Below, one piece after another: positions 10,256 to 17,221 of a DNA stretch of 39,745 bases. How positions within the stretch are numbered: position 1 is the stretch's first letter; every line of letters starts with the position of its first letter. Made by a program: the position numbers and the translations under genes. The stretch lies in IMG/VR virus record IMGVR_UViG_3300031466_000008. One strand, written 5' to 3'. The notes below the pieces were generated by a model that was not told the DNA's origin, did no database searches, and saw nothing but the letters and a program-made list of their open reading frames with translations. The DNA is from a virus.

Positions 10256-11302
10256 GTGCAACGCAATTGGACAGATGATGAATACCAATACCTTCTTGAG
10301 TTGATGGAAAGATATCAAGATTGGACATACGCCCAATATGCGGAGGCGCTCGCCCATAGATTCGGGCGTGATTTCACAAGCGAGAGTGTCCGGAAAAAAT
10401 TGAAACGTGCCGGAGACCGGAAGGGTGCAGCGAGCTTCATCGACCGAAAAAACGCCGAGGAACACGATCCGGAAAGACTCTTGTTCGTGATGATCCGCGC
10501 CCAAAAAGAGTTCCAGGAAATCGATGACCGGCAGACGGCCGTGACGATTGACATTCAAGACGATAAGCCGATCGGTATATGCTTCTCGGGTGACTGGCAC
10601 ATCGGGGGATTATACACGGATCACGAGCAGTTGCTTCGAGACAGCGAATTGATCCGAGATACAGACGGTGTGTACAACATCCTCATGGGCGACTACTGCG
10701 ACAACTACATCACGCGTAGTCATGCTGGCGGCTCATTTGAGCAAGTTGTCACGGCAGACAAGCAGCGCGAGCTGTGCGAGTTCTTTTTCGTGCGCTACTA
10801 CAAACGCGGCAATTTGGCGGTACTCAAAGGTAACCACGACAACTGGGAGTACAAAGAAACAGGCGAAGACTTCATCAAGTATTTGGCGCGCCGCATCGAG
10901 TCTCCGTATTTGTGGTACGGCGGCCGGATTACGTTGCGTTTCGGAGATGCGACGTACAGGATCCAGGCGCACCACTCGTACCGGTACAACTCCAGTCTGA
11001 ACACGACGAACAGCCAACGGAACCTGTTCAACGCAACGCATGCGGACATCATCGCTCTGGGGCACGTACATACCAATGAGACGCATGCAAAGACGGTGGG
11101 TGGAATTGACACCGTCTGGATGCGGACGGGCAGCTACAAGATCACGGATGACTATTCTCAATGGCTCGGCGGTCTCAAGAGCGATGCGCGTGTGCCGATG
11201 TGCGTGCTGTTCCCGGATCGGAAGAAAATCGTGGACTTCCGCGATTTTCGAGATGGCATTGAGTATTTGGCGATGAAACGAGCGAATCTAGCGATGGCGT
11301 GA
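10256..11302 (+). CDS. Calcineurin-like metallophosphoesterase with an N-terminal Myb/SANT-like helix bundle
   Basis: GDWH, GDYCDN, GNHD and GHVH motifs in the canonical order. GTG start with an AAGGGGG RBS. Confidence 0.85.
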   Translation: MQRNWTDDEYQYLLELMERYQDWTYAQYAEALAHRFGRDFTSESVRKKLKRAGDRKGAASFIDRKNAEEHDPERLLFVMIRAQKEFQEIDDRQTAVTIDIQDDKPIGICFSGDWHIGGLYTDHEQLLRDSELIRDTDGVYNILMGDYCDNYITRSHAGGSFEQVVTADKQRELCEFFFVRYYKRGNLAVLKGNHDNWEYKETGEDFIKYLARRIESPYLWYGGRITLRFGDATYRIQAHHSYRYNSSLNTTNSQRNLFNATHADIIALGHVHTNETHAKTVGGIDTVWMRTGSYKITDDYSQWLGGLKSDARVPMCVLFPDRKKIVDFRDFRDGIEYLAMKRANLAMA

Positions 11303-11315
11303 GGAGGGATGAGTA

Positions 11316-11681
11316 ATGAACGGGCATCAACCGGATTACATGTCAGTTGGTAAACCGCCGAATTGCGGCAGCAGTATTATCAGAGGTATCGGCCCGGATA
11401 CACCAAAGGTCGTAAACAAAGAAGGCGGCTCACAATCGCATTTGCCATATCGTTTTGACTTGATCGACCCACAAGCAATCTTTGCACTTGCAGAGGTGCT
11501 TTATCAAGGATCGGAAAGACACGGAGAAGACAACTGGCGAAAGATACCGATCAATGACCATTTGAACCACGCACTCGCGCATATCTACGCATACATGGCC
11601 GGGGATGAACAGGACGATCACCTCGGCCATGCGTTTTGTCGGATGATGTTTGCGGTGGCGCTGGAGCGCGGGAATAAATAA
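11316..11681 (+). CDS. DUF5664-like / dNTP pyrophosphohydrolase N-terminal-like protein
   Basis: YGEDNWRK...HLNHALAHIYAYMAGDEQDDHLGHAFCRMMF resembles the all-alpha phage family. Assigned from memory only. Confidence 0.5.
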   Translation: MNGHQPDYMSVGKPPNCGSSIIRGIGPDTPKVVNKEGGSQSHLPYRFDLIDPQAIFALAEVLYQGSERHGEDNWRKIPINDHLNHALAHIYAYMAGDEQDDHLGHAFCRMMFAVALERGNK

Positions 11682-11687
11682 TCGATT

Positions 11688-13799
11688 TTGGAGAGTGGCG
11701 CGGCTTTGCGCTGCGATTTAAAGGTGGGGAGCGGAGAAGTGACATACAAGTTAATACATGGAGATTGTTTGGAAGAATTAAAAAAAATGCCTGATCATAG
11801 CGTTGATTCGGTTGTCACTGACCCGCCGTATGGCCTTTCGCAAGAACCGGATATCCGCGAAGTCTTAGAAAAATGGCTCGCGGGCGAAGATTATCACCAT
11901 CGTGGTGGCGGGTTTATGGGCAAAACGTGGGATTCGTTCGTGCCGGGTCCGGCGATTTGGCGGGAAGTCTACCGCGTGCTGAAACCTGGCGGCCATGCGC
12001 TTGTATTCGCCGGGACACGGACGCAGGATCTGATGACAACAGCGCTACGGCTGGCGGGTTTTGAGATTCGGGACGTCGTCGAATGGCTGTATTTCTCCGG
12101 CTTCCCGAAGTCGCTCGACGTAGGCAAGGCGTTCGATAAGCGAAAAGGCGGGGCGTCTTTCGTCCATGAGTTCGCGAAGCTGATAAAGAAAAAACGCCTA
12201 GAAAAAGGGTATTCGCTGGCATTTATGGATAAGGAGGTGTGCGGCGGAACGACAAATTATTCGTGGTTCGAGGGCAGACCGGCGGGTGTAAGGCTACCGC
12301 AATTAAAAGAGTATTACAAGATAAAGGAGCTATTAGACCTAGACGATACGTATGACGAAATGATGGAGGAAGCCGAGCGCGAGAAAATCGGCGAACGACA
12401 AAAGTTAGATACATTCGTTCGGAAGGGCGGTTATGTAGCGGGAGAAGCAGACGCGAGCCAATATGATAAAAAAGTGATCGACATCACCGCTCCCGCTACC
12501 GACCTTGCCAAAAAGTGGAGCGGATGGGGAACTGCTCTGAAACCGAGCCACGAGCCAATAATATATGCTCACAAACCATTTAATTCCGTTCCGTTTTCAG
12601 GTATAATGGAGGAGACAACAAGTCTCCTGGAGGTAGCGTTATGCCTGTTACTGTCAAGTGTGAATGGTGCGGAAAGGATTTTCAGGTTAAGCCCAAGCGA
12701 GTTAAACGGGGAGTCAGATTTTGCAGTTATGAGTGCCGCACTGCTTCATGGGGAAAGATCCGGCGAGTTAAAAGAGCTGATGGTTACATTCAACTCACCG
12801 GAAACGGTCTTAACGTGCTTGAACATCGCTACATTATGGAACAACATCTTGGAAGAAAGCTTGAAAAATGGGAGCATGTTCACCACAAAAACGGAGACAA
12901 GTCTGACAACCGCATTGAAAACCTTGAAATCCTTGTTATTTCCGATCACGCAAGAACCCACCATCAAGGCCGTGATGACAGCGCATGGGTTCGGCTTGAA
13001 TGTAAGCAGTGCGGAAAGGAATTTGAACGACGAAGGAAGGAATACGAGCGATATCCTGAAGCGTTTTGTAGCCATGAGTGCTACCTTGAGAACCGGAGAA
13101 AATGGTACACCTGCGAATATTGCGGTGAACGCTTTACGACTAATAACCCCAAGCGTCGTTTCTGTTCTCAAACATGTGCTAACCGAAATACAAACCAACA
13201 ACGCCGAAAAAAGTCCACTTGAACCCGCCCACGAACCCATCATCATGGTCCGCAAGCCGCTTGACGGAACCGTAGCGGACAACGTAGAGCGGTGGAGAAC
13301 GGGTGCGATTAATATCGATGCGTGTAGGGTGGGTGACGAGGAGCGTATCAATCAACCGGCTGCGAATAAACCGGGCGGAAATGCGTTAATGATGAGCGCG
13401 AAGGGTATGCCGCAGAACGCGGAAGCGCGGTTAGCTGTTGGCCGTTTCCCCGCGAACTGCGTCACGACGGAGCCGGACGCCTTTTTCTCGCCATATTTCA
13501 ACGTAACCCCGGAACACCTTTGTAAAAAGGCGAGCAAACGAGATCGAAACAGCGATTGGCGCGGTGAAGAAATCGGCGCGACCAACCGTCACCCCACCGT
13601 CAAGCCGACCGACCTGATGGCGTGGCTGGTGCGGTTGGTGACGCCGCCGGGCGGAGTCGTTCTCGACCCGTTCGCAGGCAGCGGTTCGACATTAGTAGCG
13701 GCACGGCGCGAGGGGTTCGGCTTTATCGGTATTGAGCGAGAAGCCGAATATATCGAGATTGCGGAAGCACGGACTGTCATCAAAGAGTCGTTCAAATGA
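11688..13799 (+). CDS. N6/N4 DNA methyltransferase (beta class) with a ~0.68-kb in-frame insertion; likely real start GTG 11739
   Basis: DPPY (VVTDPPYGL) near the N-terminus and HPTVKP...[11 protein letters not shown] near the C-terminus. The conserved LKPxHEPII..KP motif occurs twice (12537-12581 and 13218-13262). Confidence 0.85.
12641..13222 (+). CDS. HNH homing endonuclease nested in the -1 frame of the methyltransferase ORF
   Basis: Own GGAGG RBS 8 nt upstream. [43 protein letters not shown], flanked by CxxC Zn-ribbon repeats. Confidence 0.85.
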
Positions 13800-14464: not shown

Positions 14465-14866
14465 ATGCCGAGCAAACCGCGCAAACCCTGCAACAAACCG
14501 GGATGCAGGAACCTGACAACGGAACGATACTGCACAGAGCATCAGCACTTGCAGGAAGAGCAAGAACGAGCGCGACACCGGTATTATGACACATACCAAA
14601 GGGACAAGCGGGCAGCAGCGTTTTACAAGTCTGTACCGTGGCGCTTGTTACGTGAGCAGCGATTGATGAAGGATCACGGCCTTTGTCAAATGTGCCTGAA
14701 GGAACAAAGGATCACGCCAGCAACCGAGGTCGACCACATCATACCGATTCGGGTGCGGTGGGATTTGAGGTTGAGGTTGGACAATCTTCAGTCACTTTGT
14801 CATAGGCACCATATGAGTAAGACGGCTGAGGATGCACGAAGACATGAGGTGCCCGGTGGAGGTTGA
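14465..14866 (+). CDS. Terminase-associated HNH endonuclease
   Basis: C..GC...YC..H; GLCQMC; EVDHIIP...L.NLQSLCHRHH. Sits immediately upstream of cos/terS, as in HK97-like cos phages. Confidence 0.9.
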   Translation: MPSKPRKPCNKPGCRNLTTERYCTEHQHLQEEQERARHRYYDTYQRDKRAAAFYKSVPWRLLREQRLMKDHGLCQMCLKEQRITPATEVDHIIPIRVRWDLRLRLDNLQSLCHRHHMSKTAEDARRHEVPGGG

Positions 14867-15204: not shown

Positions 15205-15651
15205 ATGGCGGGCAGACCATCCAAACCGGTCCAATTGCTAAAAATCGAGGGAAAGAGTCACCGTACAAAGAAGGAACTGGAACATCGCGAGAAAATGGAG
15301 AAGGCCCTTTACACCGGGACAACGTTCAAAGAGTCTCCCGCCGTGAAGGCCGATCCTGTTGCGCATAAGGAATTCTTGCGGCTTAAAAAGCTGTACAAAA
15401 ACATCCAATTTGTTGACGGTCTGGACGAGCAGATGATTAACCGGTATTGCCTGCTAATCAGCCAAGAGCAAAAGCTGATGGAGTCCGACGACTTCCTAGC
15501 GCTTCACAAGACGCGGGAAATGATCCTGAAGCTGGAGGATCGGTTGTTCCTGAACCCAGTATCCCGCATCAAGGCGATTCCGAAGAAGCCGCCTGAGGAA
15601 GAAAAAGAGTCGCCAATGGCGCAGTTTTTGAAGCGCCGGGCGGGTGGTTGA
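15205..15651 (+). CDS. terS: Terminase small subunit (P27 family-like)
   Basis: MAGRPSKP...LKIEGKSHRTKKEL at the N-terminus. Size and position fit. Confidence 0.8.
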   Translation: MAGRPSKPVQLLKIEGKSHRTKKELEHREKMEKALYTGTTFKESPAVKADPVAHKEFLRLKKLYKNIQFVDGLDEQMINRYCLLISQEQKLMESDDFLALHKTREMILKLEDRLFLNPVSRIKAIPKKPPEEEKESPMAQFLKRRAGG

Positions 15652-17221
15652 GATGCCGCATGATAAGCAGCGAGCATTGGAGCCAATCGAATTTATCCAA
15701 ATGCTCAAGGCCGTCGATGACTTCTACGGCCAACCTTTTAAACTGCTTGACTGGCAATATCAAGTCCTTTGGGACGTTTACGGCACCGTCAAGGACGACG
15801 GTTACAGGCAGTACCGTTACGCATATCTGGAGATCCCGAAAAAGAACGGGAAAACGTCGCTCATCGCTGCGATCGCGCTATACCATCTGGTTTGCGATGG
15901 CCCCGGCGGGCAGATTTATTGCTGCGCGGCGGACCGTGGGCAGGCCGAGCTAGTGTACAAAGCCGCGCTCGGAATGATCGAGCAGGAGCCGGAATTCGAC
16001 GGCGTGCTCAAGGTACTGGACAGCCGGAAGGAGATCAAAAACAAGCACACCGGGACGACGTTGAAAGTCCTTTCGGCCGAAGCATACACCAAACACGGGA
16101 TTAACCCGACCGTGGTAATCTTCGACGAGCTGCACGCACAGCCGAACCGCGATCTGTGGGACGTCATGACGTTCGGGGCCGGTGCAGCCCGTAAAGAGCC
16201 GATCTGGTGGGTCATTACTACGGCCGGCGATGACCCAGACCGAAAGTCAATCGGGTGGGAAATCCACGAACAGGCGACCAAGATCGCGGCGGGAGAACTG
16301 AATGACCCGTACTGGTATGTGAAAATCTACAGTGCGCCCGAGGACGCGGATATCTTTGACGAAGCGACCTGGTATCAGGCGAACCCATCACTGGGGCACA
16401 CGATCAGCATAGAGAGCGTAAGACAAGAGGCGCTAGCTGCTCGCAATAGCGAGTCTGCGGAGCGCCTTTTTCGTTGGCTACGTCTGAACCAGTGGGTATC
16501 GCTCAAGCGCACCGGATGGCTGCCGCTCTCATTATGGGATCAGACGGTTGGCAAGTGGGACCTTTCCGAACTCGTCGGGAAGAAGTGCTATGTCGGCCTC
16601 GACCTCTCCAGCACGACGGATATCACGGCTGCCGTTTATCTGTTCCCGCCGCAGGAAGGGATTCCGGATTGGCGGTTTATTCATGAGGCGTGGATACCCG
16701 AGGATAATATGCGGGAGCGAGTGCAGCGCGACAAAGTTCCCTATGACCGCTGGGTGAACTCGAAACACCTGTACGCAACACCTGGGAATGTCGTCGATTA
16801 TGATTTTGTCGAGGCTCGTCTGGTAGCAGCCAGCAAACAATATGATCTGCGCACGGTAGGCGCCGACCAGTGGAACAGCCGAATGCTCACGCAGCGCCTG
16901 ATGCGGCAGGGCATAGACGTTGTTGAAATTGGTCAGGACATGAAAAACATGTCGCCGGCCATGAAGTTGATCGAGCAGCTATTGAAACGCGGTTTGATGA
17001 CCCATGAGGCGAATCCGGTCGCTCGATGGTGCTGGGGCAACGTCGTGGTTGCGGTGGACGGCAATGAAAACATCAAGCCTATGAAAAACAAATCGAAAGA
17101 CCGCATCGACCTTACCGTTGCGTTAATTGACGCGATGGCAACGGCGATGCTGTTTGAGGAAATCAGCTTGGACGTGAGCGAATTTGCGGATGAAGACTTT
17201 TTGAACAAACTTTGGGGGTGA
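15644..17221 (+). CDS. terL: Terminase large subunit (Terminase_1 family)
   Basis: YAYLEIPKKNGKTSL (Walker A-like), VIFDELH (Walker B). 525 aa. Confidence 0.95.
   Translation: MVEMPHDKQRALEPIEFIQMLKAVDDFYGQPFKLLDWQYQVLWDVYGTVKDDGYRQYRYAYLEIPKKNGKTSLIAAIALYHLVCDGPGGQIYCCAADRGQAELVYKAALGMIEQEPEFDGVLKVLDSRKEIKNKHTGTTLKVLSAEAYTKHGINPTVVIFDELHAQPNRDLWDVMTFGAGAARKEPIWWVITTAGDDPDRKSIGWEIHEQATKIAAGELNDPYWYVKIYSAPEDADIFDEATWYQANPSLGHTISIESVRQEALAARNSESAERLFRWLRLNQWVSLKRTGWLPLSLWDQTVGKWDLSELVGKKCYVGLDLSSTTDITAAVYLFPPQEGIPDWRFIHEAWIPEDNMRERVQRDKVPYDRWVNSKHLYATPGNVVDYDFVEARLVAASKQYDLRTVGADQWNSRMLTQRLMRQGIDVVEIGQDMKNMSPAMKLIEQLLKRGLMTHEANPVARWCWGNVVVAVDGNENIKPMKNKSKDRIDLTVALIDAMATAMLFEEISLDVSEFADEDFLNKLWG

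Follow-up and report, generated by a model that had tools for sequence, protein, structure and literature searches.

A 39,745-nucleotide (nt) stretch of viral DNA, IMG/VR record IMGVR_UViG_3300031466_000008 (referred to in its whole length as the window), contains a DNA methyltransferase gene whose reading frame runs on, without a stop codon, through a second gene. The open reading frame (ORF) of this beta-class N6/N4 methyltransferase (hereafter methylase) occupies positions 11688-13799 of the + strand, encodes 703 amino acids (aa) from a TTG codon at 11688, and carries an insert at about 12546-13226 (+), which amounts to 681 nt, or 227 codons in the methylase frame. Within the insert, a 193-aa HNH_3 homing-endonuclease gene is encoded at 12641-13222 (+) in the -1 frame. 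The insert, a homologue of the ShiLan domain, is very probably a hidden-HNH homing cassette of the ShiLan type in the methylase gene of a Paenibacillus-like phage, which would not be spliced out and would be read through in the host frame.

The ShiLan domain was first reported in 2023 as a cryptic in-frame insertion (PMC9957025) and was later recognized as a hidden out-of-frame HNH endonuclease, apparently a homing one, by Arsenault, Gosselin and Gogarten in 2025 (PMC11855218). The same ShiLan-type element has also been cited for Applejack (PMC12613952). The original prediction, which was made from the letters of the window and described an HNH cassette nested out of frame in a methylase frame that stays open, agrees with everything that could be tested and coincides with the published reading of ShiLan (PMC11855218); the features that it listed (ORFs, motif copies, TATAAT, hairpin, GGAGG, and stop codon) are all present where it had placed them. 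Its claim to novelty went too far, since the arrangement was already known from mycobacteriophages between 2023 and 2025. What is new here is the host phylum, the breadth of the family, and the evidence for selection in two reading frames, to which sequence comparison adds the first motif copy as a part of the mobile unit and a revised model of nuclease initiation.

Anatomy of the Interrupted Methylase Gene

The methylase ORF matches PF01555 (N6_N4_Mtase) in two stretches (E = 7.5e-31, Pfam), and its DPPY, HPTVKP, and FAGSGST motifs are intact. The true start is likely the GTG codon at 11739, which gives a protein of 686 aa, because the JGI gene call P0001 (686 aa, 100% identical) and the homologues (M-x-YKIIHGDC) begin there.

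Five empty-site relatives (P0004, P0005, P0006, P0009, and P0010), which are 444-485 aa long and ~80% identical (77-85%) to the window methylase, read ...GWGTALKP|(A/S)HEPII(L/V)ARKPL... across the insertion site. Alignment to such uninterrupted methylases, which had been proposed as a check on the original prediction, places a 227-aa insertion between ALKP and AHEPII in the window, at the same site as in the mycobacteriophages, and the insert ends with ...KSPLEP in the methylase frame. The empty-site junction, as modelled on the P0004/P0005 alleles, reads ...CTGAAACCG|GCCCACGAACCCATCATC....

The motif that follows the site is found twice in the window. Copy 1 (12546-12581, +) is borne by the cassette and read in the methylase frame only, and copy 2 (13227-13262, +) consists of the host gene's own codons directly after the insertion site. 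A 45-nt duplication had been described originally, with 15-residue spans at 12537-12581 and 13218-13262, 681 nt apart. The two copies are indeed similar, agreeing at 9/15 residues and 27/45 nt (60% nt identity); the extent has to be corrected, because the position of the insertion in the empty-site relatives implies a duplicated unit of 12 codons, and the LKP/LEP similarity belongs to the cassette's own 3′ end, outside that unit. The copies are closer as protein than as DNA, which was reported for ShiLan too (PMC11855218). Because the motif is duplicated, the borders of the cassette are uncertain by a few nt. The original argument from codon usage and AT content was overstated: the composition profile does not cleanly separate cassette and host, part of the upstream methylase being as AT-rich as the insert.

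In Starcevich, comparison with the empty alleles of Mindy and Phalconet (~93-95% nt identity on either side of the insertion) reveals an insertion of exactly 603 nt between ...GWGTALKP and AFEPIVVARKPL. The 5′ end of this insert is SYEPVCVAVKPY, a diverged motif copy, and its 3′ end lies 1 nt past the HNH stop. The duplicated motif is LKPSYEPVCVAVKPY and AFEPIVVARKPL in Starcevich, and LKPALETVTFASKPY and VKPNLDPCIMARKPL in the Cylindrospermopsis phage Cr-LKS3; both loci show the same frame offset and an open host ORF. In the window and across the family, the insert opens with 11-12 residues that imitate those downstream of the site. The nuclease stop codon of the window is the TGA at 13220-13222, 4 nt before copy 2. 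Over the whole family, the end of the stop codon falls between 10 nt ahead of copy 2 and 8 nt within it, except for a single outlier, L031, at 34 nt.

The HNH Nuclease and Its Relatives

The nuclease gene is assigned to the -1 frame because its start falls in class 2 modulo 3 and the methylase in class 0. Its product matches PF13392 (HNH_3) with E = 3.7e-12 and 46.1 bits (cut-off 24.8), has FCS-type zinc fingers at both the N and the C terminus (Pfam), and matches PHROG HNH families down to E = 4e-23; a sequence search of the PDB returned FCS zinc-finger similarity only. Residues E61 H62 R63, E78 H79 V80 H81 H82, N84, D89 N90 R91, N94, H103, and H107 are invariant among the homologues, with the catalytic pattern EHVHH...DNR...N...H...H kept, and the zinc-finger columns are invariant as well.

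It was found by tblastn that the closest relatives of this protein sit inside annotated DNA-methylase genes, namely in Cr-LKS3 (53% identity) and in ~30 mycobacteriophages (~44%), such as ShiLan, Bipolar, Starcevich, Mantra, OwlsT2W, and Pollywog. The match to ShiLan extends over aa 3-148 with 44.2% identity (E = 2e-27).

An antisense ORF of 201 aa is present at window positions 12746-13351 (-), exactly opposite the HNH codons, and this frame is open also in Cr-LKS3 and Starcevich. It is open because the HNH gene contains no TTA, CTA, or TCA codons, and the ORF is most likely not a gene.

Mobility and Distribution of the Cassette

Two metagenomic viral contigs, L003 and L004 (proteins P0002 and P0003), carry the same cassette, and the near-identical block that they have in common with the window covers 12538-13231. 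Over this block (~694 nt), which includes copy 1, the window and L003 differ by 9 mismatches (98.7% identical); outside it mismatches are dense, and the methylases that share the near-identical cassette are only 45-80% identical. In copy 2, every third base differs between the window and L003, as in the rest of the host gene. Therefore, copy 1 moves with the cassette and copy 2 belongs to the host, in keeping with the earlier suggestion that the first copy had arrived with the inserted DNA. The cassette has recently been transferred between divergent alleles of the methylase, as would be expected of a homing element.

A scan with the HNH alignment yielded 80 loci in IMG/VR and 21 in GTDB genomes. 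Wherever a locus has a close homologue of full length, its HNH gene lies within a long ORF at the same +1 codon offset, and in most of these long ORFs the DPPY and F.GSG motifs are recognizable. The carriers comprise viral metagenomes, a cyanophage, metagenome-assembled genomes (MAGs) of Betaproteobacteria and Deltaproteobacteria, and Kribbella. Relatives with the same methylase architecture and no embedded nuclease, which would have spoken against the arrangement as first described, were not seen: every insert-bearing relative has the HNH gene, and the insert-free relatives measure ~450-485 aa. A single capped protein search with the insert peptide of the methylase frame returned no match, although P0001 holds this peptide; the result is taken to reflect a limit of the composition filter or word index and not absence. 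For ShiLan, a BLASTP search with the methylase-frame insert gave 9 matches only, all in phages (PMC11855218), compared with the 74 loci from several phyla in the present analysis.

Selection on Two Reading Frames

The methylase frame of the window contains 0 stops across the 681-nt insert. At 74 nested loci (the nested loci from IMG/VR and GTDB plus the window, Cr-LKS3, and Starcevich), the 11,270 overlapped codons include 0 stops in the methylase frame, compared with 627 in the third; in 23 free-standing, more distant homologues, the corresponding frame has 95 stops in 2,146 codons. When the window HNH gene was re-coded with the codon usage of the flanking methylase, 8.2 stops were expected and the frame was open in <1/2000 trials. 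The same host-usage re-coding of a non-redundant set of 47 cassettes (below 80% identity) gave an expectation of 1.4 open frames, and 47/47 were observed. It is the comparison across the 74 related loci, with no stop in the methylase frame, that is decisive for selection to keep this frame open.

Copy 1 is constrained by the methylase frame only, because it lies 5′ of the nuclease start. Among its 48 unique variants, Glu3 is found in 48/48, Ala8 in 45/48, Lys10 in 48/48, and Pro11 in 47/48, and the mean pairwise differences at codon positions 1, 2, and 3 are 0.41, 0.36, and 0.67, respectively. By this pattern, copy 1 is under purifying selection as a translated peptide in the methylase frame, which is hard to square with an intron. 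With regard to copy 2 in nested alleles, Arg9 (41/44) and Pro4 (39/44) are mostly retained, and the third position is Glu in 24/44, Asp in 13/44, and another residue in 7/44. In many lineages, the last codons and the stop of the nuclease gene overlap the first three host codons. The His, Glu, Pro, Ile, Arg, and Lys of this motif are invariant in insert-free relatives, and H515, E516, P517, I518, R522, and K523 of copy 2 are invariant in 118 relatives.

Expression Signals of the Nuclease

A -10-like hexamer, TATAAT, is located at 12602-12607 (+), from -39 to -34 relative to the HNH ATG, and is a candidate internal promoter element. A TATAAT-like sequence (at least 5/6 matches) occurs at exactly this position in 13/31 non-redundant relatives (9 exact, including the window), and among the upstream offsets only -39 to -34 scores higher than the rest (mean 3.68, >3, vs. 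a background of 1.52). The constraint acts at the nucleotide level, because the hexamer spans third codon positions of the methylase frame. These observations suggest an internal -10 element for the nuclease. The upstream TATAAT of the original prediction is therefore present, and its support is its conserved position: a consensus scan for sigma-70 promoters and terminators over 12300-13500 returned nothing and gave no -35 partner for it.

The hairpin AGGAGAC-AACAA-GTCTCCT lies at 12610-12628 (+), as had been noticed, inside a longer stem of the minimum-energy fold, in which 12598-12608 pairs with 12637-12647 and takes in the HNH start codon. The fold of the start region has a minimum free energy of -22.9 kcal/mol (z = -2.9), and 2/200 shuffles were equally good. 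RNAalifold found no consensus structure in 17 spacer regions, neither the window hairpin nor the longer stem being conserved. A conserved regulatory hairpin was therefore rejected, and that of the window is lineage-specific.

The Shine-Dalgarno (SD) sequence GGAGG is found at 12629-12633 (+), 7 nt 5′ of the HNH ATG. SD-like motifs precede the start by 4-11 nt in 25/31 non-redundant cassettes, mostly as TGGAGG-N7-ATG, and in the family the nuclease start codon lies at a nearly fixed distance of 92-95 nt past the KP anchor. It was previously proposed that the ShiLan nuclease starts, as a leaderless gene with no ribosome-binding site (RBS), from a GTG 18 nt into the insert (PMC11855218). In ShiLan, this upstream GTG opens an ORF of 195 aa (L106:223-810). 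In Bipolar, OwlsT2W, Pollywog, and Starcevich, a TGA stands in the HNH frame between the upstream GTG and the nuclease domain, and a GGAGG-N4-GTG start is conserved 3′ of it. The TGA is created by an ACC to ACT change that is synonymous in the methylase frame (L057, L058, L068, and L002 vs. L106). On the sequences compared, the conserved SD-led nuclease start argues against the leaderless-GTG proposal (PMC11855218). It may be added that the 195-aa HNH ORF given for ShiLan in the literature hangs on the single codon ACC. A fusion of methylase and HNH protein by programmed frameshifting was also considered and rejected, because the nuclease gene comes with an SD and an ATG of its own, and its frame in the window is closed 57 nt 5′ of the ATG.

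Proposed Mechanism and Alternative Explanations

The mobile unit consists, in this order, of a re-coded 12-codon host copy, a ~60-nt spacer with TATAAT and GGAGG, and the HNH_3/zinc-finger gene in the -1 frame. The nuclease would be translated from its own internal start and would probably cut insert-free alleles at ...ALKP|AHEPII..., whereupon repair would copy the cassette into them (homing). The cassette would be excised neither from RNA nor from protein. Its length, a multiple of three, and its codon choice would free the host frame of stops, and the methylase would be produced with 227 additional residues, probably loop-like, where its variable region begins. The motif copy of the cassette may help the interrupted enzyme to stay foldable.

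Several points weigh against this reading. In a synonymous shuffle that keeps the own codons of the window HNH gene, the methylase frame was open in 36% of cases (P(open) = 0.36). The stop count in codon-preserving shuffles, which had been suggested with the original prediction, is accordingly weak in that form and informative in the host-usage form given above. At one locus, the own-codon shuffle is a weak test because the frame is open in 36% and an already biased codon set is kept, and this result implies that stop avoidance is built into the codon choice. Moreover, locus L018 (IMGVR_UViG_3300033068_002116) has a TAG at 2469-2471 in the methylase frame, which falls in the spacer 3′ of copy 1 and 5′ of the HNH start, at a position with Ser in its relatives. 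It is the only such nested methylase locus (74/75 are open), and the stop could reflect a decaying host gene or a sequencing error. In an AlphaFold model of the 703-aa protein (mean pLDDT 63), copy 2 forms a strand (E518-522, pLDDT 62-81) and copy 1 and the insert have pLDDT <50, which does not speak for copy 1 having a structural role; the model is biased and not independent, because the input alignment put the family motif on copy 2. By analogy with the relatives of ShiLan, the methylase may be dispensable (PMC11855218). The published ShiLan work is itself computational and concerns mycobacteriophages only (PMC9957025, PMC11855218).

A last point of this kind is that a ShiLan-type insert might follow an unconventional splicing route, as a self-splicing intron (group I-like or other) with an HNH ORF. 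One motif copy would then be removed, and the similarity of the copies would represent guide-sequence pairing. Phage group I introns often contain HNH ORFs, and Rfam models can miss introns broken by long ORFs. The resemblance of the insert's 5′ end to the 3′ flank was considered as a possible intron signature for ShiLan, for which RNAweasel/MFannot found nothing (PMC11855218). In the window, the covariance scan that the original prediction had called for (cmscan, Rfam 15, 12200-13600, E up to 10) detected no group I or group II intron, the only hit being a chance small RNA (E = 6.8). The sequence outside the HNH ORF, ~59 nt on the 5′ side and ~4 nt on the 3′ side, is too little for an intron core, and the spacer has no conserved RNA structure. 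An intron needs no open frame, whereas the host frame is open in all nested loci other than L018. Copy 1 is constrained as protein, its third codon position being the most variable, and the copies are only 60% identical in nt. Splicing of this kind is very unlikely. Translational bypassing was rejected as well, since known hops are far shorter than the 681-nt gap and no stop codon marks a take-off site.

On the other hand, removal could take place after translation, through an atypical intein or the proteolytic excision of a loop. The insertion keeps the frame, falls between conserved residues, is disjunctly distributed, and has Ser as its first residue, and true inteins occur elsewhere in the methylase family (Starcevich and P0003, at WLY(G/F)|C). 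However, no Hint or intein match was obtained in the 703-aa methylase protein (Pfam), and the methylase-frame insert has no Pfam or PHROG match at all; it lacks the terminal His-Asn (ending in ...SPLEP), and the +1 residue is Ala, not Cys, Ser, or Thr. What the insert encodes in the host frame is determined by the HNH frame, AlphaFold predicts this segment with low confidence, and neither intein blocks nor an intein-like fold were found for ShiLan (PMC11855218). We regard excision from the protein as extremely unlikely; the absence of Hint blocks and of any Rfam intron bears out the original view that the element is neither a classical intron nor an intein.

It is also conceivable, though unlikely, that the methylase is inactivated and dispensable, and that its frame is kept open for ribosomes to run through, avoiding premature termination and polarity, or to unfold the start region of the HNH gene. 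The HNH, terminase, portal, and capsid genes downstream are on the same strand, and polarity could therefore carry a cost; the predicted local fold has the HNH start codon base-paired, and passing ribosomes could expose it; and close relatives of ShiLan do without the methylase altogether (PMC11855218). Against this, copy 1 keeps Glu3, Ala8, and Lys10-Pro11 with synonymous variation across its 48 variants, which argues for selection on protein, the flanking halves retain the full set of catalytic and AdoMet-binding motifs across diverse lineages, and the start-region structure is not conserved. An unspliced cassette that is read through in the host frame is the reading preferred here.

Comparison with Known Systems

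The window cassette and the ShiLan element have homologous HNH/zinc-finger proteins (44% identity) and occupy the same site (GWGTALKP|AxEPIxxARKPL) in the same host-gene family, PF01555, with the same frame offset and no host-frame stops. In both, the start of the insert mimics the 11-12 codons past the site and the HNH stop falls within a few nt of the 3′ border, and both have a disjunct distribution, empty-site alleles, and no intron or intein signature. For ShiLan, it was reported that the methylase frame has no stops and the nuclease lies in the third frame, that the first 11 residues of the insert resemble the 11 residues past the site, and that intron and intein signals are absent and the AlphaFold prediction is loop-like (PMC11855218). 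The two differ in their carriers, which are actinophages for ShiLan and a Paenibacillus-like (Bacillota) phage for the window, and in their start, an ATG with canonical GGAGG and TATAAT in the window compared with the GTG without RBS that was published for ShiLan. In addition, the insert comprises 227 aa in the window and 201-202 in the ShiLan type, because the window HNH has an extra C-terminal zinc finger.

Free-standing homing endonuclease genes also split or invade phage genes, such as mobE in nrdA of Aeromonas phage Aeh1 and the seg and mob genes of T4. These likewise involve an HNH-type gene with its own start in a conserved gene, cleavage and recombinational repair, and possible co-conversion of the flanks; however, the host gene is divided into two pieces that are translated separately, or the location is intergenic. 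In the window, the host ORF continues unbroken across the nuclease gene, and the insert brings a copy of the motif with it. HNH nucleases are encoded by phage group I introns as well, for example, I-HmuI in SPO1 and I-TevIII in nrdB of T-even phages. Such introns resemble the window in that an HNH nuclease occupies a conserved coding site of a conserved phage gene. Unlike them, the window has no intron core, Rfam match, or conserved RNA structure, its host frame is open, and its motif copy is constrained as protein. Inteins with out-of-frame or antisense homing endonucleases have been described (bioRxiv 10.1101/2025.01.02.630785), in which the endonuclease lies in frame 3 of an open host/intein frame and the host-frame translation of the segment likewise has no recognizable fold. 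They differ in keeping the Hint splicing domains that excise the segment, none of which are present in the window insert.

Genomic Context and Further Mobile Insertions

The large terminase of the window is 82% identical to those of Paenibacillus larvae phages, and the nearest named methylases come from Paenibacillus, Oceanobacillus, and Cohnella. On these similarities, the window is probably a Paenibacillus-type phage with a Bacillota species as its host. Megablast searches of GenBank phages with the methylase gene and with 14001-39000 gave no match. On the same strand 3′ of the methylase are an HNH gene and the terminase, portal, and capsid genes. This second HNH gene (14465-14866, +; PF01844, E = 6e-10) is unrelated to that of the cassette and sits ~0.8 kb upstream of the large terminase gene (15644-17221), a terminase-associated arrangement that is common in cos-type phages. 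Directly 5′ of the methylase, at 10256-11681 (+), there are a calcineurin-like metallophosphoesterase (PF00149) and a PF18909 gene, the latter matching the N-terminal domain of dATP/dGTP diphosphohydrolase (E = 2e-17). The PF18909 family is associated with phage DNA base-modification pathways, and the phage genome may therefore carry modified purines.

A LAGLIDADG-type intein is found at WLY(G/F)|C...N|SGFPKS in the same methylase family, in Starcevich gp66 (L002:1169-4213) and in P0003. Its occurrence in a mycobacteriophage and in a relative of the window means that the family has received at least two mobile insertions, independent of each other and both at conserved sites. Furthermore, the large terminases of a Prevotella sp. 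MAG (L100:1020-3176, JAFZUS010000033.1) and an uncultured Bacteroides (L102:972-3173, CASEYC010000030.1) contain an intein (Hint_2 and Intein_splicing) whose endonuclease slot is taken by an HNH_3 gene in another frame (L100:2336-3010, E = 4e-18; L102:2324-3025, E = 1.5e-16); the intein frame is open, and the frame offset equals that of the methylase cassette. Nested HNH_3 genes with a +2 offset are present at two IMG/VR loci, at 2357-2908 within 1309-3033 of L080 (E = 4e-9) and at 2486-2917 within 1156-3030 of L082 (E = 9e-14). Their host ORFs (575 and 625 aa, respectively) are open and have no Pfam match, and these loci may be further hidden-nuclease arrangements in unknown host genes.

Implications

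The ShiLan-type element is not confined to mycobacteriophages, since a Paenibacillus-like phage carries it with a TATAAT box, a GGAGG, and an ATG. Such textbook bacterial expression signals make the questions of splicing, methylase activity, and nuclease expression easier to test in standard hosts. The case also holds a warning for annotation, as gene callers report one long "DNA methylase" and the nuclease gene is missed.

As a tentative and rather doubtful generalization, the cassette might represent a self-sufficient, splicing-free niche for a homing nuclease across bacterial phyla, with its own -10 and SD elements, ~190 overlapped codons serving as a harmless linker, and a "prosthetic" motif copy. 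The invariant Glu of the cassette would then replace the host Glu, the host copy being often overwritten by the 3′ end of the nuclease gene. If this is true, an active interrupted methylase would combine two motif halves, the first, with the Glu, supplied by the cassette and the second, ARKPL, by the host. To our knowledge, the survival of homing nucleases in essential or useful genes has been attributed solely to their hiding in inteins or self-splicing introns. A third route is suggested by the ShiLan-type cassette: the element would stay in the gene, be read through in the other frame, and bring along a spare copy of the motif.

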